Of a DNA stretch of 64,000 bases, positions 7,128 to 34,862 are shown piece after piece (position 1 is the first letter of the stretch; each line of letters starts with the position of its first letter). The stretch is from assembly GCA_963803145.1 (NCBI GenBank), contig CAWDLW010000020.1, positions 128,001-192,000 of the forward strand, in the 5' to 3' direction. This stretch comes from Methanotrichaceae archaeon (lineage in GTDB: Archaea > Halobacteriota > Methanosarcinia > Methanotrichales > Methanotrichaceae). Both the position numbers and the translations under genes were made by a program. The notes under the pieces were generated by a model, which saw only the letters and a program-made list of their open reading frames with translations, was not told the DNA's origin and made no database searches.

Positions 7128-8249
7128 CTATCTTGGAATCACATTGATCTGGCCCTTCATGCCCATGTAGTCATGAAGCACACAGAGATATTTGTAAGTC
7201 CCAGGCGTACTGAAGGTGAGGTTATAGCTTTTCGGTCCTGGTAGCGGCACCATTGTGCCCCAGATAAGGCCCGAGTTGAAATAGCCAGCACCATTGTATA
7301 CCTTACTTCCGTTTGGCATCAGCACAATGGGGTTCAGTACTAATTTCGGCGGCCCTCTTTGCTGTGGCTCAGCAATGACAAGCTCAGGCTCTTTGCCTCC
7401 CGATAGGAAGGTGACCGTATGAGGAGTCTCCACACTTCCGCGGGTCCATTCTACTGAATCACCGACATGTATCGTCAGATCTGTTGGGGCAAATCGCATC
7501 CAATCAATGAGGCCATTGCCATAGCCTATCTTAACATCGTAAACAGTCGTCCCATTCTGCCCGGGATGACTGGATACATTTCCAGCTTTCGGCTCTGCCA
7601 ACAGAGCTGCCTCCATATCCGATGCAAGAAGCTTTGCAGCATCTGCATCTATCTGCTCTTGGGTCTTGGGATAAGGCGTGCCTGCTGGCTGCACTGTAAC
7701 GTTTCCCTTCATCATGCCGTGGAACGCACAGAAGTATTCAAACGTTCCAGGCTTGGTAAACGTCAGGTTGTACTCTCTGGGGAAGCCCGTCTCTATGTCC
7801 AGTTGACCTGAACCTGTCAGCATAGTCCCATTATAGGTTTGCCCTCCCTGTGGAAGTATTACAGTTGGATTGAATAACAAACGCTGGCTGCTATTATTCT
7901 CAGGGATTATAATACCTGGAACCTGTTTTCCTGTACCTAGGAAGGTTACAGTATGCGGCTCAGACGCTTTGAGCTTCCATGCAATCTTATCCCCGACATT
8001 GACGGTTATATTTTCAGGATAAAATCGCATAAATTGCCATGCACCTGATGGTCCGTACTCCTGGGGTTCAATTGCTGCCTCCCCGCCGACCAGCACCGTC
8101 CAGGTTACAGGGCCAGCCTGAGCAGCCTTCCCTTGCTGAACCTGCGCATAGGCTGCACCAGTCAAAACAACAAGTGCCATCGTACAGAAAGCAAGGAGCA
8201 TTATGATCTCCAAGCGGTATAGAATACCCTTACTTTGTCTTTTTGACAT
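7128..8249 (-). CDS. Secreted two-domain cupredoxin (blue copper) protein
   Basis: Two PHTVTF...GT(F/Y)xYxCxxH..M.G type-1 copper motifs and a signal peptide. Confidence 0.85.
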   Translation of the reverse strand: MSKRQSKGILYRLEIIMLLAFCTMALVVLTGAAYAQVQQGKAAQAGPVTWTVLVGGEAAIEPQEYGPSGAWQFMRFYPENITVNVGDKIAWKLKASEPHTVTFLGTGKQVPGIIIPENNSSQRLLFNPTVILPQGGQTYNGTMLTGSGQLDIETGFPREYNLTFTKPGTFEYFCAFHGMMKGNVTVQPAGTPYPKTQEQIDADAAKLLASDMEAALLAEPKAGNVSSHPGQNGTTVYDVKIGYGNGLIDWMRFAPTDLTIHVGDSVEWTRGSVETPHTVTFLSGGKEPELVIAEPQQRGPPKLVLNPIVLMPNGSKVYNGAGYFNSGLIWGTMVPLPGPKSYNLTFSTPGTYKYLCVLHDYMGMKGQINVIPR

Positions 8250-9412: not shown

Positions 9413-10588
9413 TTAGGTTTGCTTTCTCTTCAGAAGCCTCGCCTGGAAGCCGTGATACTTGGCAAAGCCCTCTGCATCGCGCTGGCTCAGCGTTTGGGAG
9501 TCGAAGGAGACCATATCCTGCGCATAGAGTGCATCAGGCGATTTTCTGCCTACAGGTGTCGCGCATCCGGCATAAAGCTTCATCCTGACTGAGCCGTTCA
9601 CACGCTTCTGGCTATGGTCGATGAAGGCGTTCAGGTCTGGAAACAGAGGATCGTCAACAAGCCCCATGTAAGCCAGCTCTGACCAAGTCTCATCAACGAC
9701 TGACTTGAACCTGAGCTCCTGCCTGGAGAGTACCAGATGCTCTAGGTCATTGTGAGCTGTGAGAAGTATCGTCGCAGCGGGATGCTCATAATTCTCGCGA
9801 GCCTTTAGGCCAAGAACTCTATCCTCGACCATATCTGTCCTTCCGATGCCGTGCTCGCCCCCGATCTGATTGAGCTTTGTTATCAGTTCGATTCCATCCA
9901 TCTTCGCCCCGTCGATGGAGACTGGCACGCCCTTCTCAAATCCTATCTCGATAACCAGGGCAGGCTTATTTGCATCAGGCTTCTTTGACCAGCTATAGAT
10001 CTCCTCAGGCGGCTCAAAGTAGGGATCCTCAAGCCTTCCGCCCTCAATGGACCTGGACCAGAGGTTTTCATCTATCGACCATGGCTTGTCTTTCGTGACA
10101 GGCACATCTATTCCGTGCTCCCGCGCATAATTGATCTCCCATTCGCGCGCGAGATCAAGCTCTCTCATAGGCGCGATTACGCGACAGCTTGTGCACCTGA
10201 AGACCTCTTCGAACCTTAGCTGATCGTTTCCGCGCCCTGTGCAGCCATGCGCCAATGCATTTATTCCTTCCTTCTCGGCGATCTCGACGGCCTTTGAGGC
10301 TATCAGCGGCCTGGCTATTGCAGTTCCCAGAACATAACCCTCGTAAGATCCATTTGCCTTAATCAATGGAAAGAGGTAATTCTCGACGAACTCTTTCCTG
10401 GCATCTATAACATAATGCTTATCGGCAAGCTGCTTCGCGCGGTTGTTTCCCCGTTCAATATCAGCTCCGGGCTGGCCGACATCAACAAGAACAGTTATGA
10501 CTTTATCAAATCCATAACGCTCCCTCAGAAGCGGTATGCAGACGGATGTATCGAGGCCTCCCGAATAGGCCAATACAACTTCACTCAA
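9413..10588 (-). CDS. argG: Argininosuccinate synthase
   Basis: [24 protein letters not shown] and [15 protein letters not shown]. The probable TTG start at 10588 follows a GGTGA RBS. Confidence 0.97.
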
Positions 10589-10689
10589 ACGTATATCACC
10601 GCTCCCGTACAATAAGCCATGCAAATTTAATGTTATCTCTTCTTTTGGGCGATAACTCTATAACTGCCGCGGAAAAAAATGATGCCATA

Positions 10690-11790
10690 ATGACGCAGCT
10701 AATTTCGACTGCCGCTCTTAACGTAGACTTTGACCCTGATAGCCATAGGCTCAATGCCCATGGAGCTCTGGCTCTAATGGTCCAGCCAGTCCTAAACAAG
10801 ATCAACCAGAGGCTATCTGAGGAAAAGCCTGCCATGGTCAGATTGAAGGATATAGTTGCCACTACCTGGCTTCCGCCTATACCTAGCGGCCCTTTCAAGA
10901 GGTTGGTACTCAATGAGGCTCGATTTGCTATCGGGAGGCCTGTCCCTCAAACAGTCTCCATTGAGGCGACACGCCTTTGCGGCTGCGCATGCGATCACTG
11001 TCTGATCAAAGATGGCGTGGGAGAGCTAAGCAAAGAGCAGATTCTTGGCGTTATAGATGAGGCACTAGATCTGGGAGCCTGTATCATAACCTTTACAGAA
11101 GGCGACCCGCTGCTGCGTGAGGATATCTTTGAGATCATCAAGCATGTCGATCCTGAGAAGGCTGTTGTTAACCTCTTTACTCCTGGTCTCGAAATGACTA
11201 TCGAGAAGGCAGTGAAACTCAAGGAGGCCGGCCTTTACAACCTAATAATAGGAGTATATAGTCCGGATGCTGCGGAGCATGATAAGATAAGGGGTCTGGA
11301 TGGAGCTTATGCAAAGGCAATCGATGCAATAAAGATGGCTCTTGATGCAGACCTGATGGTGACGATGTCGACCCACGTGAAAGCTGGCGATGTGGAAAAG
11401 ATACCCTTGCTTTACAAGCTTGCATCCGACCTGGGTGTTCATGAACTATCGGTCTGGGAGGGCATACCAAAATCTCCTGAGGAGCAGCTCACCCAGATAG
11501 AGCGCGAGAAGATAATTGACATCTACAGGAGGATTAATTCCACACCTGGCGGGCCTCGTATCTTCGCTAGTACCTACTTTGAGGGCCAGATGCTGGGCTG
11601 CATGGCCGGGCGGAGATGGATGCATGTAGGTGTAGACGGCAATGTCAGAGCATGCCCTTACCTGAATGAAAGCTATGGAAATATTCTAGATAGCCCTCTC
11701 AAGGATATTTGGAAAGCCTTGAGGGACTGCGGAGAGTTCAATAATTTCACCTGCAGCTGTCCAGCTCAAAATCTATTTGGCCAGGTTTGA
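10690..11790 (+). CDS. Radical SAM protein with SPASM/twitch-type C-terminal domain
   Basis: CxxxCxxC (CGCACDHC), EGDPLLR, C-terminal CMAGRR...DGNVRACPY...CSC. Start placed at ATG 10690 to avoid overlapping argG. Confidence 0.9.
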   Translation: MTQLISTAALNVDFDPDSHRLNAHGALALMVQPVLNKINQRLSEEKPAMVRLKDIVATTWLPPIPSGPFKRLVLNEARFAIGRPVPQTVSIEATRLCGCACDHCLIKDGVGELSKEQILGVIDEALDLGACIITFTEGDPLLREDIFEIIKHVDPEKAVVNLFTPGLEMTIEKAVKLKEAGLYNLIIGVYSPDAAEHDKIRGLDGAYAKAIDAIKMALDADLMVTMSTHVKAGDVEKIPLLYKLASDLGVHELSVWEGIPKSPEEQLTQIEREKIIDIYRRINSTPGGPRIFASTYFEGQMLGCMAGRRWMHVGVDGNVRACPYLNESYGNILDSPLKDIWKALRDCGEFNNFTCSCPAQNLFGQV

Positions 11791-14597: not shown

Positions 14598-15215
14598 TTA
14601 GTAATTTGGGGGTACAGATGTTTGCGGTGTCTGTGATGGGACTGTCCCCTGTGTTGATGGCGGCATCTGGCCTGCTGCTGCGACTACTTGGATACTGCTC
14701 AATATACCTTGTGTCACACTCTCAGGATAGGTTGATGTTATATCCACGAGCATCGTGCCAACAGAAACAGGGCCGCATTCACAATTGCTGCTGTCCAGCC
14801 AGTATTGTGCCTGGTAGAATTGTAGCCCAGAGGGTACACCCATGCCGAATGGCAATCCAGAGATAAGGAAGCCATTCTTGCCATCTATAACCTGCTCTTC
14901 AGCTGCAGTAGTGTTAATTCCTCTTAATGCCATACGAAGGGCCGTAATTTCCTCGCTCACCTGCAGAGTGGAATCTGTGAGGTTATTGTACTGTGTTATA
15001 CTTATTGAAGCGCCGGTCATATTATCAGTTACTATCACTATCGGATATATCGTGGCAAAAGGATAAACTGCTGGATTCGGCGTTTGAATCTGGTAGTTCA
15101 TGTTTGTGTTCATATTGAAGGATACCGTATAAGGTCCTGTCTGGCGTGTCTCAGTGGCGGCTAAAGACAGGGAAGACAGCATTAGAACTAATGCTATCGC
15201 AATTATTAATCTCAT
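14598..15215 (-). CDS. Secreted hypothetical protein
   Basis: Signal peptide and a Pro/Gln/Thr tail; starts 2 bp after the upstream gene. Confidence 0.8.
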   Translation of the reverse strand: MRLIIAIALVLMLSSLSLAATETRQTGPYTVSFNMNTNMNYQIQTPNPAVYPFATIYPIVIVTDNMTGASISITQYNNLTDSTLQVSEEITALRMALRGINTTAAEEQVIDGKNGFLISGLPFGMGVPSGLQFYQAQYWLDSSNCECGPVSVGTMLVDITSTYPESVTQGILSSIQVVAAAGQMPPSTQGTVPSQTPQTSVPPNY

Positions 15216-15217
15216 TT

Positions 15218-16033
15218 TTAATAACCTCCTGTAGATGGATTACCCAATGGTTGACTACTCGTTTGCTGGGCTATTGGCTGAGTATAGCCTGGCTGCTGAT
15301 AGGCGGTCTGCTGACTTGACAGCGGATTATAGGCAGCCACATTGGCAACAACATCGATATCTATAGCGTTGCTCAGCTGGCTGCCTATTGAGAATAGCAG
15401 TATATGTTGCCCTATTGTATCTGCATAGAAACTTATTTGGCTCGATCCCGGGTAGAAATAGTAGTAGTTCTTTATCAGCTGGCCATCTGGACGTATCTCA
15501 TAAAGGTATCCGCTGCCGCCTATGGGAGTGATTGCCAAAATGGTTAAGGATGAACCCTGGGGGACTGTTGCATACTGGGTCCAGCTGGTAGTCCCTTCTA
15601 TCCATAGAGAATTGCCTCCTGTGTACGTAGAATAGGTCTGGTATTGAGAGTATGGCACCGCCTGTGTCTGACCTACAAAATAGAGGCTTGATGGTGCATT
15701 GCCGCTGATTGCATATCTCTGAGGTGCAGTGATATGAGTAATCGGAGCAGCTCCTATGGGCATCCTATAGTACTGAGAATAGTCTATTGAGAAGAATTTT
15801 TGGAATCCGTAGGATTGATTAACGTTAGGATATTGGCCAAAGGGAATGCTTGAGGGATGAGTGCCGATAGGAGAATAGTACGGTCCTGTTACATATACTG
15901 GCCCAGAGCTGAGCCAATCTTGAGGAGATCCTAGATCCCAAAGCTGACTAGAGGCGGATCCCATCAGAAGGCTCAAAAGAAGAGCCAATAGGCATAATTG
16001 CTTTGTCATAATCTTTTCACCATAATAAGACAT
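15218..16033 (-). CDS. Secreted Tyr/Gln/Ser-rich surface protein
   Basis: Signal peptide; NSLWIEG..SWTQY..VP.G...FYAD..G.HILLF beta domain. Confidence 0.8.
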   Translation of the reverse strand: MSYYGEKIMTKQLCLLALLLSLLMGSASSQLWDLGSPQDWLSSGPVYVTGPYYSPIGTHPSSIPFGQYPNVNQSYGFQKFFSIDYSQYYRMPIGAAPITHITAPQRYAISGNAPSSLYFVGQTQAVPYSQYQTYSTYTGGNSLWIEGTTSWTQYATVPQGSSLTILAITPIGGSGYLYEIRPDGQLIKNYYYFYPGSSQISFYADTIGQHILLFSIGSQLSNAIDIDVVANVAAYNPLSSQQTAYQQPGYTQPIAQQTSSQPLGNPSTGGY

Positions 16034-16143: not shown

Positions 16144-17244
16144 CTATGAAGCGCTGGATCCTGTTGGAGCCGCCGATCCTGTGGGGCATCCCCTTGTACA
16201 GCGACTGCTTGTTGGACAACTTGAGCCGGAACAACACGTCGAACCCGTTACGCATGTAGATCCTGTCGGACAGCTTGCACGAGTTGTGCAACCCGCACCG
16301 GTTACACAGCGTCCGCCCGTTACGCATCCGCTAGAGGATGGACAACAGGAGTTGGTTGAACAGCCTGTGCCTGTTGGACAAGCACTATTTGTTGCGCAAT
16401 AACTGCAGGTTGTACAGCCACTGCCGGTTGGACAAGCACTGCTAGTTAGGCAATAGTTGCAGGTTGTACATCCGGTGCCGGTTGGACAAGCACTATTTGT
16501 TGCGCAATAACTGCAGGTCGTACATCCGGTGCCGGTTGGACAAGCACTGCTAGTTAGGCAATAGTTGCAGGTTGTACATCCGGTGCCGGTTGGACAAGCA
16601 CTATTTGTTGCGCAATAATTGCAGGTCGTACAGCTACTGCCTGTTGGACAAGCACTGCTGGTTAGGCAATAGCTGCATGTTGTACATCCGCTGCCGGTTG
16701 GACAAGCACTATTTGTTGCGCAATAATTGCAGGTTGTACATCCGGTGCCTGTTGGACAAGCACTGCTAGTTAGGCAATAGTTGCAGGTTGTACATCCGCT
16801 GCCTGTCACGCAGCCAGTAGTTGTGGGACAGTAAGAGTTGGTGTTACAGTTGCAGCCGGTTGGACAGCTACCTCCGCTTGGGCAGCCAGTACCTGTAAGG
16901 CAGCTTGCACCTGTTGGGCAGCCAGTGCCTGTGGGACAGTTCGTGCCTGTCGGGCAATTGCAGCCCGTTGTACAGCCGGTTGTCGGACAGCCGGAGCCAG
17001 ATGGACATAATGAGCCACTAGCACAATCGCCGCCAGTCGGACATGTTGATCCAGATGCACAGTTACAGCCTGTAGTGCAGCCTGCGCCTGTAGGACAGGT
17101 CGAACCTGTCGGACAATTACAGCCGGTAGGACATCCTGCGCCTGTTAAGCTGTTGGCCTGTACGGCTTGTACCCCCTCATCTGCATGTACGCTGCCGATC
17201 AATAGCAAAGAGAGGACTATCAACAGCACTAAAGTAGTTTTCAT
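16144..17244 (-). CDS. Secreted Cys/Thr/Gly-rich repeat protein A
   Basis: Signal peptide MKTTLVLLIVLSLLLIGSVHA after a GGAGG RBS; CPTGxG hexapeptides and 8 tandem 18-aa units CTTC(N/S)YC(LTSSA/ATNSA)CPTGxG. Confidence 0.9.
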   Translation of the reverse strand: MKTTLVLLIVLSLLLIGSVHADEGVQAVQANSLTGAGCPTGCNCPTGSTCPTGAGCTTGCNCASGSTCPTGGDCASGSLCPSGSGCPTTGCTTGCNCPTGTNCPTGTGCPTGASCLTGTGCPSGGSCPTGCNCNTNSYCPTTTGCVTGSGCTTCNYCLTSSACPTGTGCTTCNYCATNSACPTGSGCTTCSYCLTSSACPTGSSCTTCNYCATNSACPTGTGCTTCNYCLTSSACPTGTGCTTCSYCATNSACPTGTGCTTCNYCLTSSACPTGSGCTTCSYCATNSACPTGTGCSTNSCCPSSSGCVTGGRCVTGAGCTTRASCPTGSTCVTGSTCCSGSSCPTSSRCTRGCPTGSAAPTGSSAS

Positions 17245-17660
17245 ATTCTCCTCCAACACTATTTTTAAAAGATGTCTCTTGTGGCATTTTAATAAGTATA
17301 TAGGAATAAATTGTTCTGATTGCTCATTATTATTATGCGTACCTTGTAGAAGTACGTAATCATCTTAGCTAATTTTTTTCATAGTTTTCTCGACATGCTG
17401 ATCTATTTAAATGCTTAATACGTGAATTATAGACAAAAATTTACTATAAATTCTGATGAACATACCAGTAAGCATATTAAGATGAGTTTCAGAATCTATT
17501 AACCCACTTCATATCGATACTTTATAAATACATAAAATACAACAATTAGCGGAAAATAAGATAGAATGTTCTTAGACAAGGGTTTCTTGCGCGAGCTATA
17601 TCCTTTTCCAGGCTTGAGTTTGATGGTTGTTAAAAAGATACCGATATAAAATTTATCGGC

Positions 17661-17691
17661 GAACTCGGCTAGTTATAGGCCAGCCGAGTTC
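17661..17691. terminator. Stem-loop downstream of the membrane-protein operon
   Basis: GAACTCGGCT pairs with AGCCGAGTTC (10-bp perfect stem), 11 bp past the stop at 17703. Confidence 0.5.
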
Positions 17692-17702
17692 CCGATTTTA
17701 AA

Positions 17703-19784
17703 TTAAGTAAATGTTTTGCCTGTTGTATTCCCGTTGTCTACGATTACATCACGCAGATTATCCACTTTGCAGCTGAGCTTTACCCACTCCGCAGGAGGAT
17801 CTGATATGATCACGGCGATCATATTCCGCTTGAAATATTTGTCCATCAGCTTTTCCAGATCGAACATGCCCGAGAGATAATCCTCTTGATAGCTTGCATC
17901 GCCGCTTAATATAGCAATCACTGGTTCGCCTTTGAGCTCGGGGAACTGAGTTGTATAGTGCGCTAGTGGGTAGGATAAGTTGAAGGATATCAGGAAGAGT
18001 ATAGATAATATCACCAATGCTCCAAATGGGTTTCTGCGGTTGATGACTACTACGACTAATCCGATAGCTACCAGCAGTATGAGTACAAGTGTTTTATCGA
18101 TCTTATCTACACTTGATAAGTACTCTATCATGCCGATAGACATCTGAGCATGGTCTCCGAAGCCTACAACGCCATTGTTGAATTGTGTGCTGTCTGTGAA
18201 CATGATAACATTGCCAGCTCCATACTTGGTTCCGACTATTACAAGATGCTTATCAAAGAGCGAGTTCATCTTTACTTCATCTGGAAACTCTCGGCTTAAG
18301 AAGAACGGAGCCGTCTCATTACGGAAATGGCCAAAGAAGCTGGGCCTGGTTGTAATCTCAAATAGGGAGCTTCCATTCAGCCTTTCGATGCTGTTGCTAG
18401 TCTCCCACCCAAGGTCACCAGTCATGTATCGGGTAATTATCGGTGGAAATTCTCCATCTTGCGTTATAGACCCACTAGTATCTGTGTATGTATCCTGAAC
18501 ACCCGTTGCCATGAACTTATATCCTATTCTCTCGGCAATCGGATTGAGATTAGTGCACATTCCATAGATATCTGTATGTTCGCTAACTAGGAAGAGGCTG
18601 TTGCCTCTGGCTGTAAAGTTAAGTATAGCATCAACCTCTGACTTCGTGTAAGGTCTGGTCACGCATTTTAGCACAAGTATAGCTTTTTGTCCCCGAGATA
18701 TATTTTCCAAAGCATCGAGTGTGATATCAGGAACCAGAGATGCACTAACAGAACTTACAGCAGGCGCCTTGCTAGGCTTATCTATTATTAGGGTAACATT
18801 ATATAAGCTTGCAAGTATATCAAGCCACCCAAAGTAATTGTTGGTGCCGCTCACAGGATCCTTTTCGTACGTTTTAATGTAATCAGGCCAGGTAGGCTCC
18901 CATTCGCTGTGGGCTTCATCTATTATTATTTTTGGGTCCGATCTGACTGTCATCGGAGTGTAGTACAATAGCCCCAAGAGTAAGAATATTATCAATAGCG
19001 GTGCAGTTATCTTCTTTGATGTAAAAGTGCCCGCCTGTATTTTTTTGATCTTGGCGCCGGGAATCACCAGGCTCACGAGCAGAATGGATGCCAGGGGAAT
19101 AGCCAAAGCCGGCAGATTATCAAGGACGAAATTAGCTGGCGATGGATTATACAGAAAATTCTGCAGGTTAAGGATTGTGAAGATAAAAGGAACAGCAGCC
19201 ACTGCAAATGCAGACTTCACGGTGATCTTTCGATCCTCATCCAGGATTGCCAATAGCACCAACTCTGCGACCAGCAAGGCAACAAAGAACGGCAGAAGAA
19301 GCTTCACATCATCGAGTAGTATAGGCAGTTTGGTCCTGGTATGATAAAGCAGAAGGTAACCTACATCGTTTATCTCATACCTTATTCCAAATAGAGGTGA
19401 TATATCCCTAAGAACTGCGTACAGTCCATTAAGCAGGAGTTTAGTATCCGCAAACTGGAGTACTAAAACGCCTGCAAGGGAGGGAAGGAAAGTCTCAACC
19501 TTGGCATTGATCGCTATCAGACAGAATATCAAGACGACGATCAGAGGAATATAGGTGTTATTGACTAGGCCCTTTACGAAGAAGATGGAGACTGGTATTG
19601 CCAGCGCAAATGCAACCAGGTCACCTTTTCCTGGGGTATGATCTCTGAATGCGACCAGGAGAAGAAGGATGGAGGCCGCTGCCACTATGAATGTGGAGTA
19701 CTCCCAGTAATAAAACGACATTATATAGCTTCCCAAGAGGAGAAGCCCTGTCGCAAATCCGGTTACTTTGGATTCAAAGTCCAT
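17703..19784 (-). CDS. Polytopic membrane protein with GATase-like/DUF4350 (GIFT-like) domain
   Basis: Multiple N-terminal TM helices, then IIIDEAHSEWEP...LVLKCVTRPYTKSEVDAI..F...G.SLFLVSEHTD...YGAGNVIMFTDS..FNN, two further TMs and a short C-terminal domain. Confidence 0.8.
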   Translation of the reverse strand: MDFESKVTGFATGLLLLGSYIMSFYYWEYSTFIVAAASILLLLVAFRDHTPGKGDLVAFALAIPVSIFFVKGLVNNTYIPLIVVLIFCLIAINAKVETFLPSLAGVLVLQFADTKLLLNGLYAVLRDISPLFGIRYEINDVGYLLLYHTRTKLPILLDDVKLLLPFFVALLVAELVLLAILDEDRKITVKSAFAVAAVPFIFTILNLQNFLYNPSPANFVLDNLPALAIPLASILLVSLVIPGAKIKKIQAGTFTSKKITAPLLIIFLLLGLLYYTPMTVRSDPKIIIDEAHSEWEPTWPDYIKTYEKDPVSGTNNYFGWLDILASLYNVTLIIDKPSKAPAVSSVSASLVPDITLDALENISRGQKAILVLKCVTRPYTKSEVDAILNFTARGNSLFLVSEHTDIYGMCTNLNPIAERIGYKFMATGVQDTYTDTSGSITQDGEFPPIITRYMTGDLGWETSNSIERLNGSSLFEITTRPSFFGHFRNETAPFFLSREFPDEVKMNSLFDKHLVIVGTKYGAGNVIMFTDSTQFNNGVVGFGDHAQMSIGMIEYLSSVDKIDKTLVLILLVAIGLVVVVINRRNPFGALVILSILFLISFNLSYPLAHYTTQFPELKGEPVIAILSGDASYQEDYLSGMFDLEKLMDKYFKRNMIAVIISDPPAEWVKLSCKVDNLRDVIVDNGNTTGKTFT

Positions 19785-21867
19785 TCTCTTCCCTCCCTCC
19801 AATGGATGTAAGCAGATTTTCAGTGAACTTCTTCAAGTTAGGATCTGGATAGCTAAACACCGGCTCATATTGTACGAAATTCTTGAATATCGTATGGTCA
19901 CCTACCACTACTATCTGTCCTTTCCCGATTTTCTTCACAGCCACGACGGGTGTATTGTTGTAAAGAGCAATTGGCGTTCCACCCATGACCTCAACTGCGG
20001 AATACATAGTGATGTTTCCATTAACGCTATCCATCAGAGGATTCTTTAGCGGTCTGACAGCTATCCTTGTCTCCTTCATGTAAGGCAGATGATAACCCCA
20101 TGTTGTGTAGTTGAAATAGCTGATATCTCCTAGAAGCGTCTCATTCAAAGACATGCCGAAGTTGTTGAGCAATGTGTTCACTGGATGGCCTGATTGGTCT
20201 GCAGAGATATCGGAATGGTATCCATCAAAGACTATCATAGTACCGCCGTTCTCTACGTAATTCAATAGATTTGTCCGCTCCTCTGTGCTGAAGGGATCGG
20301 TTGGGCCCATAGTCACATATGCCTTGTATTTCGATAAATCTTGAGGTACCTCTTTCACAAGAACGGGATTGAATCCATAGTGCTGTGCAAATATGGCGAC
20401 GAAGACATTCTTGTACTGATGTGGATCTCCATAGCCCTCGATGTTTGCATGTCCAACATCAAGCGCAATTACATTTGTCGGCTCCCATGTCACAGGAACG
20501 GCGGCCTGGACCTGAAGCAGAAGAAGAATAAGAGATACTGAAACGATCAAAGGCACTATTGTATATAGGCGTGCTCTGAATATGCCTAAAGCTGCCAGAA
20601 GAGCCAAAGGTACAACGAGCCAGATGTTTCTCAGGACGCTGTTCTCATGGTTGAGATAACTCATGACCTTTCCCAAAAAAACATAGTTGTACATCAAATT
20701 GGGACCGCTCATAGAATCGGAGTTGGCTATTGCCAGTACTCTTCCTTTGCCATAGTTTACAGCTGCGCATATTGGAAGAACTCCAAAGTCCTCATTGCTC
20801 TCAGGCGCAACATCCCCCAAATAGGCATGGTTCTCTGCTGCCCAATCGCCTAGATCGGCCCATGTTGTGTACTTGAGCGCATAAAATATCAGTCCATCGG
20901 ATCTATTAACCCTTAGAGTTGCTCCTGCGGTCTCCTCTGTGCTGTCAAAGCCAGAAAGGCTTGCGAAATGAGGCTCCCAGAGCATGCTATAGTCGAAGTT
21001 AAGGTGAAGCCCAAAGGTTTCCAGTATGGGATTGAGGTCTATATAGCAGTCCATTATGTTTGTATGATCTCCCAGCACAAACAGACCGCCGCCGTTTCTT
21101 ACGAAGTCTGTGATATACTCGATCTCCTGGGGGCTGTACTTCTCCTCAGGGGTTTCCAGTACCAGAATGCTGACGTCTTTTAAAGATTCGGGAGATATTG
21201 TTGTGTTCAGAATAGTAGTCTCATAACCTACTGTATTCAGATATCTGAGAGTGGAATGAGTTATTGTATCGTTCTCAAAGAATGCCGAGTCGAGCTTATG
21301 ATGGTATCCGTCGTATGCGATCTTGCCTGTCTTTATCTGGCCTAATGGATCGATCGGAGATAAGCTGATCAAGAGCAGTATCATCGATACATACAGAGCC
21401 GCTTTTGTTATGGGCTTAACCTGTACCTTGGATGCATCTCCCAGATCGTAGACGCTCGCAACAACAAAGAATGCAAATGTGATCAGAAGGGTTATCCAAG
21501 TATTCAGTGCGAGACCTAAGCCCTCAACCATTGCTATAGGCAGCAAGATAAATGTGGTCTTTAGCAGATGCTCATTCCTGTAGAAGTAATATATTACTGC
21601 TAGCATTAGGAAGATGTAAGGCGTAGGGTTTCTCAATAGAAATGGTATGAAGAACATTATGATGCCGAGTGGCCTAGCCTTCTCGAACCTCTTCCATGAG
21701 AAGAAGATGAGTAGAGATAGCCCTGACACTAGGCTGACAACATACATTGGCGTCATCAGCTTAAAGACGGAATGTATAATCCCTGACTCCCAACATATAA
21801 AGAAAAGAAGAGGTAAGTAGGGAATGTAATCTCTGGCCCTGGCTGGCGCCTTTGATTCGCTGCTCAT
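19774..21867 (-). CDS. Polytopic membrane protein with two GATase-like/DUF4350 (GIFT-like) domains
   Basis: N-terminal TMs; domain 1 ILVLETPEEKYSPQEI..ITDFVRNGGGLFVLGDHTN...YGKGRVLAIANS; TM pair; domain 2 IALDVGHAN...YVENGGTMIVF...GKGQIVVVGD. Confidence 0.8.
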   Translation of the reverse strand: MSSESKAPARARDYIPYLPLLFFICWESGIIHSVFKLMTPMYVVSLVSGLSLLIFFSWKRFEKARPLGIIMFFIPFLLRNPTPYIFLMLAVIYYFYRNEHLLKTTFILLPIAMVEGLGLALNTWITLLITFAFFVVASVYDLGDASKVQVKPITKAALYVSMILLLISLSPIDPLGQIKTGKIAYDGYHHKLDSAFFENDTITHSTLRYLNTVGYETTILNTTISPESLKDVSILVLETPEEKYSPQEIEYITDFVRNGGGLFVLGDHTNIMDCYIDLNPILETFGLHLNFDYSMLWEPHFASLSGFDSTEETAGATLRVNRSDGLIFYALKYTTWADLGDWAAENHAYLGDVAPESNEDFGVLPICAAVNYGKGRVLAIANSDSMSGPNLMYNYVFLGKVMSYLNHENSVLRNIWLVVPLALLAALGIFRARLYTIVPLIVSVSLILLLLQVQAAVPVTWEPTNVIALDVGHANIEGYGDPHQYKNVFVAIFAQHYGFNPVLVKEVPQDLSKYKAYVTMGPTDPFSTEERTNLLNYVENGGTMIVFDGYHSDISADQSGHPVNTLLNNFGMSLNETLLGDISYFNYTTWGYHLPYMKETRIAVRPLKNPLMDSVNGNITMYSAVEVMGGTPIALYNNTPVVAVKKIGKGQIVVVGDHTIFKNFVQYEPVFSYPDPNLKKFTENLLTSIGGREENGL

Positions 21868-21895
21868 TGTTGGATCTCTTCCCCTAAATCGTTGC

Positions 21896-22651
21896 TTATA
21901 TACGCTCTTTAATCTTCGATGCTAAGCTTGGCAGCTTCTTCCTATAGCCCAGAAGCAGCGCAGCAACGACTATTATCAGTGCACTAGCTCCAATCTTGAA
22001 CATATTGTCTGTGAGCGACATTGCAGCATTGTAGTAGTTGTAATTCGCCCTGAATACGATATCAGTCTCGTTTCCTGTCTTGGCGGCACTCCAGAGTAGG
22101 GCGTCTCTGCCGGAGATAACGACTCTCTTAAAGGGATCTGTTGAGTTTCCAATGGTCACTACTGAGGTGCCTATTTTGGCATCCGCTGGAGGAATAACCA
22201 CAACACTTGCGCCCTGAGGCTCGCCCACATTCACACTTGTATAGAGCGTATTTCTCTCGCCAATCCTTGTCAAAAGCCCATTCCAGGTGAAGGATAGATT
22301 GAACTTATATGGCTTTCCAACCTGGTAGCCGGCGAGAAGCATGGATATGGTCCGCTCACCGCCAGCCTCGTTAACATCGGCATCAATCGTTTGACCCAAT
22401 GAGTCCTCTGCCGTGTAATCCTTCGTCTCTCCACCTCGGAAAGAGAAAGTATAAAGGATGCTCGGCTCCTTGGGTATGATAGTGCTTGACCAGGTGCATC
22501 TGACGCTCCCATCGGCATTTATATCATATATATAGCTATGATCTACAGGATCAAAGGCAATCTTCTGGTGAGATGCTGTATTCTGGGCAGATGCGGAGCC
22601 GAAAGCTGCTAGATATATTAACAGTAGAGAGAGAGTAGCAGCTTTGGCCAT
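21896..22651 (-). CDS. Secreted beta-rich protein with C-terminal membrane anchor
   Basis: Signal peptide MAKAATLSLLLIYLAAFGSASA after GGAGG; C-terminal TM followed by a basic tail (YRKK). Confidence 0.8.
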   Translation of the reverse strand: MAKAATLSLLLIYLAAFGSASAQNTASHQKIAFDPVDHSYIYDINADGSVRCTWSSTIIPKEPSILYTFSFRGGETKDYTAEDSLGQTIDADVNEAGGERTISMLLAGYQVGKPYKFNLSFTWNGLLTRIGERNTLYTSVNVGEPQGASVVVIPPADAKIGTSVVTIGNSTDPFKRVVISGRDALLWSAAKTGNETDIVFRANYNYYNAAMSLTDNMFKIGASALIIVVAALLLGYRKKLPSLASKIKERI

Positions 22652-23004
22652 CTGTAAACCTCCATATTGTAACACAATTAACTCTCCGAATAATCTTATT
22701 ATCATAAGATATCGTATTTCGAACATATATTAAGCTAGCGGTTAATATTTAAGTAAAAATTGAGCTACCGATATCTAATATACACTAAGCATTCTAGTGA
22801 AGTTACTGAGTTACTAACCGTATCTATATCTGTTACAAAAGATAGTACAGGTTTATCTATAAATACGTAGGAACAAAACATTCGTATTGAAAATCTTTAC
22901 CATTGGTTCTGTATTCGGTTATGACCTCATTAGAGCTCGAAAAGTGACCTAATACACAAAAATTTGTCTGTTTAAAAAATATTGGGCGCTAGCGACCTAG
23001 CAGC

Positions 23005-24195
23005 CTAAGAAGATGATGCTGACGTCGGGCAGAGCTTTTCTGACGGGCAACTGCTGCCGGTTGGACATCTTGAGCCTGTTGGGCAGTTATGGCTTGTTAC
23101 CGTCTCCGCTGAGCTTATGCATCTACCGCTGCTTGGGCAACTGCTGGTGCTCGGGCAGTTACGGCTTGTCACACAACCACTATCTGTTGGGCAGACAGCA
23201 TTAGTTGTGCAGCCTGTTCCAGTTGGACAATTACAACTGGTCACACAGCCACCACTTGTCGGGCAAACTGAATTGGTCGTGCAGCCTGTTCCAGTCGGAC
23301 AATCGTCGCTGGTTGTACAGCCACTGCCTGTCGGGCAGCCTTCACCACTTATACAGCCTGTTCCAGTCGGACAATCATCAGTAGTTGCACAGCCACTACC
23401 TGTTGTGCAGCCTTCGCCGCTTATACAGCCTGTTCCTGTCGGACAGTCATCACTGGTCATACAGCCACTACCTGTCGGGCAACCTGCACCACTTATACAG
23501 CCGGTTCCTGTCGGACAATCATCAGTGGTTGCACAGCCACTACCTGTCGGGCAGCCTTCACCACTTATACAGCCTGTTCCAGTCGGACAATCATCGCTGG
23601 TCATACATCCGCTACCAGTTGGACAGCCTTCACCACTTATACAACCGGTTCCTGTTGGACAATCGCTGCTGGTTGCACAGCCACTACCTGTCGTGCAGCC
23701 TGAACCAGTTATACAGCTTGTTCCAGTCGGACATGTGGCCCCTGTTGGGCGGAAAGATGTTGTTAAGCATCCAGAGCATGTCGGACAGAATGAATTGGTC
23801 ACGCAGGTCGTTTCGCTCGGGCATACCGTATTGGTCGAGCAGCCTGAACCTGTTGGGCAAGTTGATCCTGTTGTGCAACCTACACCAGTTGGGCAGCCGC
23901 TACCCGTTGGGCAAACAGACCCTGTTGCACAGCTACAGCCAGTTGAGCAGCCTGCGCCTGTCATACATAGGCCTCCAGTTGGGCAACCAGCGCCTGTTGC
24001 GCACCCGCTGCCAGTCGGACAGGCTGCACTGGTTGTACAACCGCTACCTGTCGGGCAACCTGCACCAGTCGGTGTACAGGCACCAGTCGGGCTATCAACA
24101 CAATTGGCCGTTATAGCCGATGTATCCACAGCTAATGCGTTGCCTGAAAAAATAATCAAAGCTATGGCTACCAAAAATACCGCTACGTACCTCAT
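23005..24195 (-). CDS. Secreted Cys/Thr/Gly-rich repeat protein B
   Basis: Signal peptide MRYVAVFLVAIALIIFSGNALA; Cys nearly every 6th residue; 5 tandem 24-aa units CPTGTGCISG(E/A)GC(P/T)TGSGCxT(S/T)DD. Confidence 0.9.
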   Translation of the reverse strand: MRYVAVFLVAIALIIFSGNALAVDTSAITANCVDSPTGACTPTGAGCPTGSGCTTSAACPTGSGCATGAGCPTGGLCMTGAGCSTGCSCATGSVCPTGSGCPTGVGCTTGSTCPTGSGCSTNTVCPSETTCVTNSFCPTCSGCLTTSFRPTGATCPTGTSCITGSGCTTGSGCATSSDCPTGTGCISGEGCPTGSGCMTSDDCPTGTGCISGEGCPTGSGCATTDDCPTGTGCISGAGCPTGSGCMTSDDCPTGTGCISGEGCTTGSGCATTDDCPTGTGCISGEGCPTGSGCTTSDDCPTGTGCTTNSVCPTSGGCVTSCNCPTGTGCTTNAVCPTDSGCVTSRNCPSTSSCPSSGRCISSAETVTSHNCPTGSRCPTGSSCPSEKLCPTSASSS

Positions 24196-24694
24196 GTTCT
24201 CCTCTCGTGCAATTTTGAGAAAAACATGGGCAGCTTTTATAATAAAGATGTAGGAAAATAGTATACTAACAGCGCGTCATAAGCGGATATACAATGCAAA
24301 GATACGTATGTGTTGTGATCAAAAGCCAAAGAGCAGCATAAACCCATATAAAATATGATTGAATGCTTTGTGATTTCTAGGATATAGTTCATAATACGAT
24401 AATAATATGTAATCCCCATGCCAATCTGCAAAAGGCCTTGAGTCCATAATCATATATCCAAGGGTTTAGGATATTATATTGTAACTTATATTGTAACTCC
24501 ATACGGATATATCTCTAATATTGTAGATATGAACCGAAAATTTTTTACCCATGGACATATAAGTATTTAGGTTAGCTCGGAAGCCGAATATCTCAAAAGG
24601 ATGAGACTGCAGTACTATCTGGGAATTTCTACATGCTTATCAGTTGTGCTGATAGCACATAGAAACTATTAGAATAAATTGTGGTGGTGAAATA

Positions 24695-30277: not shown

Positions 30278-31756
30278 CTAAACTCCGTCTATTGTCTTGT
30301 CCTTCCCAAGCTCTTCATATATCGACCTGAACTGCTCCAGCGCTGTCTCCAGATTCTCCACTATTTCGGCGGCCAGCACCTCAGGCTCTGGAAGGTTATC
30401 TGAATCCTCTAAACTCTCGTCTTTGAGCCAGAAGATGTCCAGGCTGGCTTTATCCCTCTTCATGAGATCTTCGTAGCTAAAAGCCCTGAAGCGCTCAGTC
30501 TCCTGCCTCTGATGCCGATTATCAGGGTTATAGCACTTGATGAAGTCCTGCAGGTCCTCAAGCTTGAGGGGATTGGTCTTGAGTGTAAAGTGCTGATTGG
30601 TCCTCAGGTCGTAGATCCAGAGCTTCTCAGTCCACGGATTTTGGCTGGCAGGCTTACGATCAAAGAATAACACGTTGGCCTTGACACCCTGGGCATAGAA
30701 AACGCCAGTGGGCAGCCGCAGTAGCGTGTGTACATCGCACTCCTGAAGCAGCTTACGCCTTACTGTTTCTCCTGCGCCGCCCTCGAAGAGAACGTTGTCA
30801 GGCACGACTATTGCTGCCCTGCCATTTATCTTGAGCAATGTCTTGATGTGCTGCAGGAAGTTGAGCTGCTTGTTGGAGGTCGTGGCACAGAAATCCTGGC
30901 GGCTGTATGTTATGGTCTCCTTATCGGTTTTACCCTCGCCATTGATGATGGTGATGCTGCTCTTTTTGCCAAATGGCGGATTGGTCAGAACCAGATCTGC
31001 ACGCTCGCCTCGATCTGCGATCAGGGAATCGGCCACATCAATTGGGCTTTCCTCGCCGCCTATGCCGTGGAGGTATAGGTTCATTGCACAGAGGCGGGCG
31101 ACGCTGTCCACGATGTCTGTGCCCTTTAGTGTTTTATTCTTCAGAAAAAGCTTTTGATCTTTATCCAGGGGATTTTGATGCTGATGCTCGACATAGTCGT
31201 AAGCCGCCAGGAGAAAGCCGCCTGTGCCGCATGCCGGATCGTTGATGGTCTCGCCGGGCTTAGGCCGCATAACTTCAACCATAGCCTTGATAAGCGATCT
31301 TGGCGTGAAATATTGCCCAGCTCCACCCTTAACGTCCTCGGCGTTCTTCTCAAGAAGGCCCTCGTAGATTTTGCCCTTCACATCTATATTTAGGCCGACC
31401 CAGGTCTCGCCATCGATAAGCTTAACCAGGCGCCTAAGTTTAGCTGGGTCCTGGATTTTGTTCTGGGATTTCCGGAATATGACGCCCAGCATTCCAGGCT
31501 CTTTGCCCAAAGCTTCAAGAATATGGCGATAATGAGCCTCAAGCTCTGCCCCACCCTTCTTCAGAATGCTTTGCCAATCGAGATCCTGTGGTATTTTCGA
31601 GGGCCTGTTATAGGGAGGGCGGCTCTGCTCATCGGCCATTTTAAGGAACAGCAGGTAGGTTAGCTGTTCCACATAGTCGCCGTAGCTAACGCCATCATCA
31701 CGGAGAACATGGCAGTAGTTCCAAAATCGCTGGACGATGGTGGATTCTTCGGTCAT
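30278..31756 (-). CDS. hsdM: Type I restriction-modification methyltransferase subunit
   Basis: GQYFTPR, DPACGTGGFL (SAM binding) and NPPF catalytic motif. Confidence 0.96.
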   Translation of the reverse strand: MTEESTIVQRFWNYCHVLRDDGVSYGDYVEQLTYLLFLKMADEQSRPPYNRPSKIPQDLDWQSILKKGGAELEAHYRHILEALGKEPGMLGVIFRKSQNKIQDPAKLRRLVKLIDGETWVGLNIDVKGKIYEGLLEKNAEDVKGGAGQYFTPRSLIKAMVEVMRPKPGETINDPACGTGGFLLAAYDYVEHQHQNPLDKDQKLFLKNKTLKGTDIVDSVARLCAMNLYLHGIGGEESPIDVADSLIADRGERADLVLTNPPFGKKSSITIINGEGKTDKETITYSRQDFCATTSNKQLNFLQHIKTLLKINGRAAIVVPDNVLFEGGAGETVRRKLLQECDVHTLLRLPTGVFYAQGVKANVLFFDRKPASQNPWTEKLWIYDLRTNQHFTLKTNPLKLEDLQDFIKCYNPDNRHQRQETERFRAFSYEDLMKRDKASLDIFWLKDESLEDSDNLPEPEVLAAEIVENLETALEQFRSIYEELGKDKTIDGV

Positions 31757-33037
31757 TGGATCAGCCTCATCTGGCGGGTATTATTATTTCTTCTGCTTCT
31801 CCTTGGAGCTTCTTTTGCGCTTTCTGCTTTGATTCTCTCCGGGAGCACGCTGGCTGGCTCATCGTTGGGGTCTTGGGGGACGAGCCTGCCTTCGAAGGCA
31901 CACTTGAGGACGGATTGGCGAAGTTTGTCTGCATAAATGAGGTTTTGGCCTAAGATTTTCTCAGACTCATCGCAGATGGATAAACGTCTCTCAACTTCAC
32001 CAACAATTATTTCATTTTCCTCATTGGGTGGTAACGGGACAGGAAATGCGCTTAGTTTTGTGAGATTGACCGATGCGAGGTTTGTTGTTTGTTTTCCCTC
32101 TTTTAGGAAGTAATTTTTGCCGTAAGTATTCCCAAACCAGGATACAAATTTATTGGAAACTTCTTTTGAATATAACCTCGCTCTAAATACGTGATTTTGA
32201 TGGATACACTCAGGTAATTCCTTTTGCCATATCCAACCTCGACCTAATTTATCCCTATCTCCGCCTTCATTAAAGAGAATATCCCCCTGTTCTAGTCGTA
32301 GTTCTGAAATTGTCTCTTCAGATGCTTCAATTTCCTTAATTTCACTCAGATCGAGATATCCACGCTGAACATTCGCTACACGTAAATAAGGAACTCTACG
32401 GCCATTTTCTACTTTGCGTTTTGTATCTTTTGTTATCCCACCTTTAAGAGAGGCTAGTGCATCTAGCCGCACCCATAGCCAAGAATCAGGAAGCTTTGGT
32501 AACCCAGTTAAATCCAAACCATTTAAACCGCTAAACGCTTTTCCCGATCTGGCTTGTTTTATAACAAGAATACGTTTTAGCAACTCATCCGAAGGCTCCA
32601 CATCCGGGTGCACCTTTCGCCACTCCTCCGTGAGCCTGCCCTCCGCCGCCGCCTTGAGCACCGCCTGACGATAGCGCTTGAGCTGGGCTTTAGCCTTCTG
32701 CAATGCCTCGGCTCCGGCATCTAATCGGCTGAAAAGCTCCTCAATGCGGGCAACGATGCGATGCTGTTCAGAAAGAGGTGGAATTAGAATAGGTATATTT
32801 CCCAATGTCTTTTGATTTATGTTTGTAATAGTTACCTGGGAGCTTCCTTCAACAATCTTTTCGCGTATTAAATTGCTTCTTAAATAATATGTTACATATT
32901 CTGGGCTTGCTAATATCTTCTCTAATCGAGCCCTTATGATAAAACCACAAAAAGTTATAGGCTCATTCTCTTCCATAAACAAAGCTGGCCATCCAACTCC
33001 TTCCCTTTTCACAGATGACCTTACTATAGTTAATCTC

Positions 33038-33565
33038 CTAGCTTTTTGCACTAAGAAATCGCTCCACCCAGGACTTTGAATATCCATCCTTTTTGGAATA
33101 AAATATTTCTAAAGCGCAATCTTGGCTAGCTATAATAGCTTCATCGAAATCAGTGTATTTGGCGATCTCTCTTTTGAAATCCTTCCAACCGAATTCTATA
33201 GGATTCAAATCTGGTGAATAGGGGATATTATAAATTAAGTGAATATCGATTTCCTCAGCTAGTTTTCTAAATTTCTTGGCCAAATGAATTCTAGCATTAT
33301 CTAAAAGTATACAAATTGGCCTCATAATATTATTATTTCTTATATTTTGAGCAAATGCCATCAACGCTTCCTTCTTAGAGGAGTTGGAAACCATAACCTC
33401 ATCATTGCCATTTAATGCTATAAATCCAAAAATAGTTCTTGATCTAACCTTTCCAGGTTTATAATTTATTAAATGAGTGTTTAAGACTCTACGTGTATTA
33501 GGGCGCTGTTGTAAAGAGCTTTCATCAAGAAATCCTATAACAGGATCAGTAACAGTGGTCAGCAC
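33038..33565 (-). CDS. IS630 transposase OrfB (DDE part), in +1 frame relative to OrfA
   Basis: FLDES, LLDNARIH and PYSPDLNPIE..W DDE motifs. Confidence 0.9.
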   Translation of the reverse strand: MLTTVTDPVIGFLDESSLQQRPNTRRVLNTHLINYKPGKVRSRTIFGFIALNGNDEVMVSNSSKKEALMAFAQNIRNNNIMRPICILLDNARIHLAKKFRKLAEEIDIHLIYNIPYSPDLNPIEFGWKDFKREIAKYTDFDEAIIASQDCALEIFYSKKDGYSKSWVERFLSAKS

Positions 33566-34791: not shown

Positions 34792-34862
34792 TTTCCTCCC
34801 CTAGAACATTGAGATTATACCATTTTACTTTTTCTGCGTTATGCTGTTCATCTTGCTTTCAT

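Follow-up and report, generated by a model that had tools for sequence, protein, structure and literature searches.

Outward-facing GIFT/GATase1-like domains are a feature of envelope membrane proteins of the GldG/ABC_transp_aux type (PF09822), which belong to the ABC transporters of gliding motility and are encoded next to ABC genes of the GldA/GldF type. For archaea Makarova et al. (2015) described the DUF4350 family (arCOG01314) in MoxR/vWA neighbourhoods and predicted for this system a role in secretion or membrane remodelling; according to that paper (PMC5898192), its members consist of a signal peptide, a flavodoxin-like extracellular domain and one C-terminal transmembrane (TM) segment, and their neighbours encode MoxR, vWA and Ig-like S-layer proteins. 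Non-catalytic docking domains lying beside the membrane on its luminal or extracellular side are present also in OST48/Wbp1 and ribophorin I of the eukaryotic oligosaccharyltransferase. Here we describe a locus of a Methanotrichaceae archaeon, in which membrane proteins related to this superfamily are encoded together with secreted proteins carrying cysteines at nearly regular intervals. It lies in a window of 64,000 nucleotides, which is the whole stretch of DNA analysed (G000:C20:128001-192000) and belongs to a 4.13-Mb genome of 51 contigs (G000); close homologues of its genes carry the names Methanotrichaceae or Methanothrix in their sources. Five open reading frames (ORFs) of the window are concerned, and all of them were found, as the original prediction had it, in the same orientation (minus strand): CysB (23005-24195, 396 aa), an anchored protein (21896-22651, 251 aa), the polytopic membrane proteins mem1 (19774-21867, 697 aa) and mem2 (17703-19784, 693 aa), and CysA (16144-17244, 366 aa). 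The principal result is a conserved association of a GIFT-domain membrane pair with secreted periodic-cysteine proteins, observed both in this archaeal family and in distant lineages.

Compared with the described systems, the membrane proteins share with GldG/ABC_transp_aux the GIFT/GATase1-like domain (Pfam scores above cut-off), but they are polytopic (7-11 TM segments), form a pair of genes designated below as g1 and g2, and are accompanied by a cysteine-repeat partner instead of GldA/GldF-type ABC genes. The GldG equivalog model (TIGR03521, cut-off 389.85 bits) gave 32.2 bits for mem1, no match for mem2, and 20-26 bits or nothing for bacterial members of the pair family and for the type II members described below. 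With the arCOG01314 system they share the DUF4350 domain and a predicted place in the archaeal envelope, yet their polytopic architecture is different and so are their surroundings. Neighbours were compared among 114 flank proteins of 30 loci, 32 further proteins (10 of them flank genes) and the ORFs of the window. No MoxR, vWA or DUF58 protein and no Ig-like S-layer neighbour was registered among the scanned flank proteins and window ORFs; ABC domains were absent from the scanned window ORFs, and a single ABC-2 permease (locus L125) was present among the 114 flank proteins. In the material scanned the pair thus did not map to a known ABC or MoxR-vWA function; such a mapping would have been fatal to the original prediction. 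The likeness to OST48/Wbp1 and ribophorin I is one of fold or of sub-threshold matches; unlike in the oligosaccharyltransferase, no STT3/AglB gene is adjacent among the scanned ORFs, and CysA and CysB have no N-x-S/T sequon. In the curated families searched neither the pair nor its partners bear a name beyond DUF-type domains, PF27016, precomputed on these proteins, being outside the Pfam copy used. The literature search, which left most subscription journals outside, returned no description of a GIFT pair combined with periodic-cysteine proteins. The combination therefore appears undescribed, as had been supposed from the beginning, and the nearest published system, DUF4350-MoxR-vWA, differs from it in architecture and neighbours.

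Membrane and cysteine-repeat proteins of the locus

Three Pfam families were matched by mem1 above their cut-offs: ABC_transp_aux (69.3 bits, in two stretches), IFT52_GIFT (61.3 bits) and DUF4350 (53.5 bits). Its AlphaFold2 (AF2) model, obtained with 45 sequences (pLDDT 86.3, pTM 0.87), comprises an N-terminal helical bundle (residues 15-169) and two alpha/beta domains (approximately 182-405 and 466-697) with a TM hairpin (415-456) between them. Foldseek searches with the soluble domains retrieved the GIFT domain of IFT52 (E 1.4e-7, TM-score 0.66 on the target), the middle domain of GH42/GH35-type glycosidases, domain 4 of the site-1 protease (S1P) and OST48/Wbp1, the latter represented by chains 6s7t_G, 6ezn_G and 6s7o_G at ranks 38-45. 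Scores above the Pfam gathering threshold together with the matching fold place mem1 in the GIFT/GATase1-like superfamily; folds of this type are used elsewhere as docking or sugar-binding modules. The two hydrophobic segments of the hairpin are joined by a short R-A-R loop, so that by the positive-inside rule both GIFT domains would face outward. Fourteen columns of the mem1 alignment do not vary among the 45 sequences, which include nine with just 19-22% identity to mem1, and eight of these columns (V256, G259, G260, D267, H268, T269, N279 and D292) fall into one block of domain 1, GGG...GDHT(N), which is a candidate binding or catalytic site.

The second membrane protein, mem2, is a distant paralogue of mem1 (43 bits, E 4.6e-7) with one recognisable GIFT-like domain, but Pfam registered in it only DUF4350 with 21.9 bits, under the cut-off of 30.4. 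Thus the GIFT assignment, originally proposed for both proteins, holds for mem1 by family, fold and the presence of two stretches, while for mem2 it is the paralogy that was confirmed and the domain itself stays below threshold. No transporter family of Pfam or NCBIfam matched the TM domains of either protein.

Periodicity of cysteines in the flanking proteins is far beyond chance in CysB, where 50 of 60 successive gaps between its 61 cysteines are exactly 6 residues long and autocorrelation reaches 53 at lag 6 and 52 at lag 12, with values of at most 3 at lags which are not multiples of 6. CysA has 68 cysteines with gaps of 6 in 37 and of 3 in 16 cases out of 67, and autocorrelation of the cysteine proteins peaks solely at multiples of 6. 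There are 20 CPTG motifs in CysB and 18 in CysA. The central repeats are different, as was noticed initially: a 72-nt (24-aa) unit repeated 7.9 times in CysB and a 54-nt (18-aa) unit repeated 8.3 times in CysA (CPTGxG CTT CxY CxTxSA). The N-terminus of CysB resembles a signal peptide, ends with ALA and is followed by CPTGxG hexapeptides. In their mature form the two proteins consist by 83-86% of C, G, S, T, P and A, contain 15-18% of cysteine and only 6-7% of hydrophobic residues, and have no N-x-S/T sequon in spite of approximately 34% of Ser/Thr and several Asn in both; six N-x-C triplets occur in CysA.

A CysB orthologue occupies the same position in the related genome G004. Comparison of CysB with 11 homologues (36-61% identity) revealed 25 invariant columns, 13 of them cysteines. 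Pfam offered no family for CysA, CysB or the anchored protein. Of the NCBIfam models, Myxo_Cys_RPT (TIGR04201) scored 17.5 bits with CysA, under its cut-off of 25, and did not match CysB, so that the likeness to this family, as well as to the CefA peptides (NF038108), is confined to short-period cysteine repeats and weak matches. The AF2 model of CysB, based on the 11-row alignment, has a mean pLDDT of 37.2 and shows the signal peptide as its only confident element, with no other secondary structure; ESM Atlas contained no usable match. The Tenebrio molitor antifreeze protein (1EZG), a disulfide-laddered beta-helix, also has cysteines with period 6, is rich in Thr, Ser and Gly and lacks a hydrophobic core; the phmmer alignment is in register over residues 2-82 of 84, but it is not significant (E 2.2, bias 42.7), no fold is predicted for CysB, and disulfides outside the cell are doubtful for a presumably anaerobic host. 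Extracellular thiols of a strict anaerobe are expected to stay reduced, and since the host is presumably such an organism, judging by its taxonomy, this should apply to the proteins considered here. For the arrays themselves three states may be considered: a helix with a ladder of disulfides, a structure held by metal thiolates, or a flexible chain rich in thiols.

The family of CPTG-type genes is larger than the pair that brackets the membrane genes: at least 8 are present in G000, of which 2 are the neighbours of the trio. In six proteins of five genomes (L139:1387-4323, L140:3343-5460, L141:3591-5648, L142:2759-4771, L143:2590-5283 and L144:3524-5353) the CPTG array continues into a conserved globular domain of approximately 270 aa at the C-terminus. 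Of the four examined with Pfam, one had no match, and three showed DUF6612 or LppX_LprAFG (LolA-like) below threshold. Such fusions indicate that the array can act as a module or stalk.

The anchored protein, encoded by the first gene of the trio, has by sequence inspection an N-terminal signal peptide, a C-terminal hydrophobic (TM) segment and a basic tail. Neither Pfam nor NCBIfam contains its family (TatA/E was marginal, 12.8 bits against a cut-off of 53.9), and no paralogue was found in G000. A profile of 41 sequences collected 6 clusters among 1.84 billion representative proteins and no remote relatives; one of the matches, of 563 aa, has C-terminal similarity to beta-propellers (PQQ_2, FAM234A/B beta-propeller). 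By sequence criteria the protein is thus an orphan. In ESM Atlas it approached unnamed clusters of Bacillota (0.93-0.94, below the mark for recognition), and Ribophorin_I and DUF5803 are among the closest named ones with 0.85, a value below the lead threshold and no more than a lead. The sequence search of PDB gave Fab matches at chance level (E 1.5). Prediction of a complex between mem1 and residues 45-276 of the anchored protein was scored 0.00 and, being made with no controls, speaks neither for nor against their contact.

Association of the membrane pair with cysteine-rich partners

We designate as type I the locus of the window, with the trio anchored protein-mem1-mem2 and CPTG proteins, and as type II related pair loci with other cysteine-repeat proteins; lineages of relatives are given according to record titles. 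The trio was found in 8 of 101 genomes of the family, representing four genera (G000, G004, G015, G016, G026, G038, G054 and G083). Full-length mem1 orthologues (60-88% identity) are present in the 7 genomes other than G000, and the anchored protein is retained at all 9 other trio loci with 52-90% identity. The trio is intact at every type I locus, including those in records titled Bathyarchaeota and Methanospirareceae. A search of the 101 genomes with CysB gave matches in 10 of them, i.e. in all 8 trio genomes (1-15 each) and as weak singles in two of the 93 trio-less ones, G019 (2.8e-12) and G065 (6.4e-6). In the largest genus the trio is encoded in 3 of 55 genomes, and the same three have strong CPTG matches. 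Adjacency was observed directly at 8 of 10 trio loci, including again the records titled Bathyarchaeota and Methanospirareceae. No other single observation speaks as strongly for a functional link as this patchy yet matching distribution of the trio and CPTG proteins. Since just 3 of the 55 genomes searched in the largest genus encode the trio, a core role in the Methanothrix sheath is unlikely for it, and proteomics of sheath fractions, suggested earlier as a way to find the trio-linked proteins, may miss its target.

Two further loci were registered when G000 was searched with mem1, each with two adjacent paralogues of 850-878 aa (C20:4857-10060 and C43:27677-32850) that are 23-31% identical to mem1 over the aligned parts. 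Both type II pairs adjoin different cysteine-repeat proteins with a cysteine at every 4th residue: a 328-aa protein with 16% of cysteine and TCxxTC-type repeats (C20:10223-11209) and a 471-aa protein with GSTC repeats (C43:33067-34482). Homologues of this type II cysteine family were sought separately, but the search was swamped by its common C-terminal domain (86 of 101 genomes) and is unusable as a clean profile; matches covering the N-terminal and cysteine parts come largely, though not fully, from the same genomes as the pair. In the genome G019 of the same genus (L048, G019:C1:2102901-2122900) the type II pair and its flanking genes are kept, but at the place of the G000 partner gene there is an 86-bp gap with no cysteine-rich ORF, which looks like natural loss of the partner.

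A wider scan, made with a single pattern in a collection with one genome per species, gave 522 pattern matches and 263 relatives confirmed by tblastn. The module could be delimited in 78 of the 79 loci analysed, 69 of them non-type-I. Two or more adjacent large polytopic genes are present at 63 of these 78 loci, and the first (g1) and the second (g2) gene form separate orthology groups from bacteria to archaea. By blastp mem2 is clearly g2-like (68-138 bits to g2-type and 0-50 bits to g1-type genes), while mem1 matches both groups with a slight preference for g2 (93-153 against 75-113 bits) and has a shorter TM region. Judged by these similarities mem1 and mem2 appear to be a diverged member of a widespread two-gene family and are not peculiar to this one locus. 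A fused form was noticed in the cultured Methylobacterium nonmethylotrophicum 6HR-1 (L129), where g1 and g2 apparently make one ORF of 1542 aa; a motif protein of 400 aa is encoded approximately 1 kb upstream of it.

Cysteine-rich secreted ORFs (at least 90 aa, at least 8% of cysteine, low in Arg, with a signal-peptide-like start or cut by the contig end) are concentrated near the module: 28 were counted in 370 kb within 3 kb of it and 4 in 536 kb farther out, i.e. they are approximately 10-fold denser, and 3 of the 4 distal ones look like family members. Many partners have in common an N-terminal motif, [ST]P[LIAF][FY], which comes immediately behind the signal or anchor segment and leads into an amphipathic stretch. 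A hidden Markov model (HMM) of this motif, built from 19 partners, was applied to all six frames of G000 and recognised both type II partners (E 3e-10 and 1e-9) and nothing else, the following match having an E of 2.2; it did not match CysA or CysB; its weak matches at other loci directly adjoin the module. ORFs that combine the motif, detected as a regular expression, with a TM segment number 26 in 199 kb near the module and 11 in 707 kb of distal DNA, or 1.31 and 0.16 per 10 kb, respectively.

Altogether a cysteine-rich or motif-bearing partner was recognised at least at 31 of the 69 non-type-I loci and at 22 of the 43 where both flanks extend for at least 1.5 kb. Thus homologues of the membrane pair do keep cysteine-rich neighbours, as the original prediction expected. 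Partners are found in Verrucomicrobiota, Victivallales, Planctomycetota, Thermodesulfobacteriota, Thermotogota, Bipolaricaulota, Eisenbacteria, Alphaproteobacteria, Halanaerobiales, Cytophagia and Thermoplasmatota. Motif ORFs that adjoin or overlap the module in Polyangium (L084) and Anaerolineae (L122), or lie 3 kb off in Chloroflexia (L096), were left out of the 31. Depending on the lineage the cysteine period is 4, 5, 6 or about 8, with CxxC pairs in some Verrucomicrobia, and sizes range from approximately 160 to approximately 1600 aa; none of the partners scored above cut-off in Pfam or NCBIfam. At four loci of Victivallales and Verrucomicrobia (L071, L080, L081 and L110) the gene just downstream of the pair encodes an SPLY-type motif, proline-rich spacers and then repeated CxxCGKxH / YYCxxCxxYH pairs resembling zinc ribbons, and giant TECP-repeat cysteine proteins of up to 1591 aa (L073) occur in some loci of this and related types. 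Flanks of the pair loci are otherwise heterogeneous, with a convergent subtilase in one lineage. At the planctomycete-type loci L075, L101, L118 and L127 an RHS-repeat protein of 1594-2165 aa (DUF6531 + RHS) without the N-terminal [ST]P[LIAF][FY] motif lies directly upstream of the GIFT module and is co-oriented with it.

Possible functions of the association

The reading to which we give about an even chance is that the locus is a lineage-specific (type I) version of a widespread envelope module, serving as a surface platform for docking, assembly or processing of thiol-rich proteins. The core of this module would be the polytopic g1/g2 pair with its GIFT/GATase1-like domains displayed outward, and its usual partner a Sec-exported protein with periodically spaced cysteines. 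Such proteins would cross the membrane via Sec and lose their signal peptides; being almost devoid of hydrophobic residues, they would be unable to fold around a hydrophobic core. The outward platform may then capture them, in other lineages through the N-terminal [ST]P[LIAF][FY] helix of the partner and in type I loci with the aid of the orphan anchored protein, which would be the likeliest adaptor there because CysA and CysB lack the motif. Held, assembled or chemically processed on the platform, the cysteine proteins might give rise to a surface layer rich in thiols, to which ligated metal or sulfide, or cross-links between cysteines, would lend stability. In its extended form the proposal assumes an assembly system shared by bacteria and archaea, in which the g1/g2 platform recognises periodic-cysteine proteins by the motif helix or by an anchored adaptor and builds a thiol-based, metal- or sulfide-ligated or cross-linked layer, which Methanothrix relatives could employ for metal capture or electron exchange; this broader version we consider rather unlikely. 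The original interpretation is supported in part: gene content, the domain folds of mem1, adjacency and co-occurrence in genomes are observed, and they link the membrane genes to the cysteine-rich proteins, whereas topology, physical contact, the fate and chemistry of the cysteine proteins, their export, folding, modification or anchoring by the trio and a resulting fibre, coat or metal layer belong to the proposal.

Several observations weigh against a platform for thiol-rich proteins. The criteria for cysteine proteins were set after examples had been seen, and so were those for the motif. Related genomes are not independent samples, and the co-occurrence figures therefore overstate the support. 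A partner can be recognised at just 31 of the 69 distant pair loci, or at 22 of the 43 whose flanks are sufficient; the trio loci L056 and L057, both from one genus, have no adjacent cysteine gene; at four planctomycete-type loci an RHS-repeat giant stands upstream instead of the cysteine partner; and at least 6 further CPTG-type genes of G000 are situated away from any pair. Finally, the cysteine proteins of the window lack the N-terminal motif, so the docking idea is not directly transferable to type I.

The pair or trio could instead handle other surface matter, such as glycans or lipid-linked sugars, with the cysteine-repeat proteins as unrelated neighbours within an envelope island. GIFT domains found by Foldseek in OST48/Wbp1 and GH42 enzymes have been proposed to bind sugars (PMC7226087), the Atlas leads of the anchored protein include Ribophorin_I and DUF5803, some of the heterogeneous bacterial flanks contain glycosyltransferases or hydrolases, and about half of the pair loci have no cysteine partner. 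However, mere neighbourhood does not readily account for an adjacency that recurs across many lineages whose other flanking genes differ, for the tight co-occurrence in genomes of a genus where the module is patchily distributed, or for a partner-specific N-terminal motif that is found nowhere else in G000. Taken together this makes the glycan explanation unlikely.

Handling of metal or sulfide is unlikely as well. In this view the cysteine arrays would act outside the cytoplasm as nucleators of minerals or as sponges resembling metallothionein, and transport or sensing of metal, rather than assembly of a structure, would be the task of the polytopic proteins. The composition of the mature proteins, with their high cysteine content and almost no hydrophobic residues, agrees with it, as does the reduced state of extracellular thiols expected for a host that is presumably a strict anaerobe. 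The absence of a fold in the AF2 model of CysB (pLDDT 37) is what metal-dependent folding might be expected to produce, and genes for ArsR, ChrB_C, redoxin and a Na+/H+ antiporter are scattered among the neighbours. An inner-membrane DUF4350 gene of Geobacter, at most a possible relative of the present family, is reported to respond to cobalt (PMC7726332). Against this, the TM domains match no transporter family, no metal-related gene is consistently adjacent in the scanned flanks, and those CPTG repeats that are fused to a globular domain look like stalks or spacers.

Two other explanations are very improbable. According to one of them the cysteine-repeat proteins are precursors of a ribosomally synthesised and post-translationally modified peptide (RiPP) or a similar product, modified (for example, by radical S-adenosylmethionine (SAM) thioether formation), cleaved and exported by the membrane proteins. 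Three bacterial partners did match CefA, a RiPP peptide with cysteine at every fifth position, but with 16.8-21.2 bits they remain under the cut-off of 30, and the radical SAM/SPASM gene (10546-11790) and the C39-like peptidase gene (5492-6145) of the window are 4-10 kb off with unrelated genes between. The partners have signal peptides of the Sec type and, with 160-1600 aa, greatly exceed RiPP precursors in length, and the one MiaB-like radical SAM protein among the 114 flank proteins does not make this class consistently adjacent. The other explanation, of the same very low probability, regards the membrane proteins as ordinary GldG-type ABC accessories or members of the archaeal DUF4350-MoxR-vWA system. 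It is favoured by the scores of mem1 for ABC_transp_aux and DUF4350, the latter known in MoxR/vWA neighbourhoods (PMC5898192), and contradicted by the low GldG score, by a polytopic structure in place of a signal peptide with a single C-terminal TM segment, and by the composition of the scanned window ORFs and flanks, which lack MoxR, vWA and DUF58 and include one ABC-2 permease. That the cysteine-rich ORFs are not genes at all, being fortuitously open repeat DNA or the antisense of another gene, is hardly credible, since, although the opposite strand is also open (a 378-aa ORF at 23117-24253) and the codon-position test against the G004 orthologue cannot tell the sense frame from the antisense one (third positions are shared), the signal peptide is conserved outside the repeats, 13 of the 25 columns invariant among 11 homologues are cysteines, Shine-Dalgarno-like sites precede both ATG codons, the family occurs with an open frame in 8 genomes, and in six proteins it is fused in frame to a globular domain.

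Layout of the window and significance of the module

Starts of the five genes were chosen with regard to upstream sites and orthologues. For the anchored protein the longest ORF begins at 22726, but ATG 22651, preceded by GGAGGT at a distance of 7 nt, is the most likely start. For CysA an ORF from GTG 17259 would give 371 aa, and ATG 17244 with GGAGGA upstream is most likely; GAGGAG stands upstream of the ATG of CysB. The longest ORF of mem2 begins at TTG 19802, while its orthologues begin with MEFESK or MDFESK, which fits ATG 19784. Tight packing of the trio was thus reproduced for the 28-bp gap between the anchored protein and mem1, and for the 11-bp overlap of mem1 and mem2 when ATG 19784 is accepted; with TTG 19802 the overlap becomes 29 bp.

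T-runs and then an AT-rich spacer of approximately 350 bp follow the stop codon of CysB, a hairpin with a T-run lies directly 3' of the mem2 stop (17640-17660, minus strand; by its position, the likely end of the trio transcript), 443 bp of AT-rich DNA separate the trio from CysA, and the stop codon of CysA is again followed by a hairpin and T-run at 16121-16096. Terminator-like sites are no more numerous than expected by chance (8 against 7.5 in shuffles), so that only their positions were used. Because of these spacers, T-runs and hairpins the cysteine genes are probably separate transcription units bracketing a three-gene operon. The arrangement looks like a bracketed trio operon and not like a single operon of five genes. 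Three or four co-oriented units may be assumed: CysB, anchored protein-mem1-mem2, CysA and perhaps a pair of possibly associated genes downstream of CysA, which encode secreted proteins of 271 aa (15218-16033, minus strand) and 205 aa (14598-15215, minus strand) and are 2 bp apart. Both these proteins belong to families that are multi-copy in G000, and synteny of their genes is confined to G004; the type II loci L044 and L047 are adjoined by a homologue of the 205-aa protein, and the domain of the 271-aa protein weakly matches the type II cysteine protein of L046 (E 7.9e-6). Sequencing runs found for this genome are 5 DNA runs from 2 sediment studies, with no RNA run listed.

Radical SAM/SPASM enzymes often cross-link cysteines in peptides. 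The protein of this class encoded in the window (10546-11790, plus strand) lies 4.3 kb downstream of CysA, and its gene adjoins that of argininosuccinate synthase and overlaps its start; the order of the two genes is the same in G004. The region 4943-6145 (minus strand), about 10 kb from the cluster, encodes the C39-like cysteine peptidase, a stand-alone protein of 217 aa, and after it a TPR protein of 176 aa. A 373-aa protein with two stretches of the plastocyanin/azurin-type cupredoxin (7128-8249, minus strand) is unusual in a methanogen-type genome. Genes of a type I restriction-modification system occupy 30278-39666 on the minus strand (HsdM 30278-31756, HsdS 31753-33087 and HsdR 36892-39666), with a DDE_3 transposase and helix-turn-helix pair (33038-34043) and an ornithine cyclodeaminase gene between HsdS and HsdR. 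Farther on, a protein of 2823 aa with at least 13 CarboxypepD_reg repeats is encoded at 48152-57408 (plus strand), its start being overlapped by the end of the preceding gene with a prokaryotic YEATS domain, and is followed at 57470-62652 by several smaller CarboxypepD_reg/TPR proteins.

If the link between the membrane pair and periodic-cysteine proteins is true, it would define a conserved envelope module without an assigned function, with 263 or more relatives spread over bacteria and archaea of many lineages, a recognisable class of partners and a candidate recognition motif. It would also give access to hundreds of periodic-cysteine proteins that now pass as "hypothetical", having received no name from gene callers or family databases. 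The module is present in the cultured isolates Methylobacterium nonmethylotrophicum 6HR-1 and Polyangium sp. y55x31, and the hypothesis is therefore testable by ordinary genetics. Methanothrix relatives are key acetoclastic methanogens of sediments and digesters, and a thiol-rich layer on their surface would bear on acquisition of trace metals, tolerance to sulfide, aggregation and uptake of electrons from their partners.

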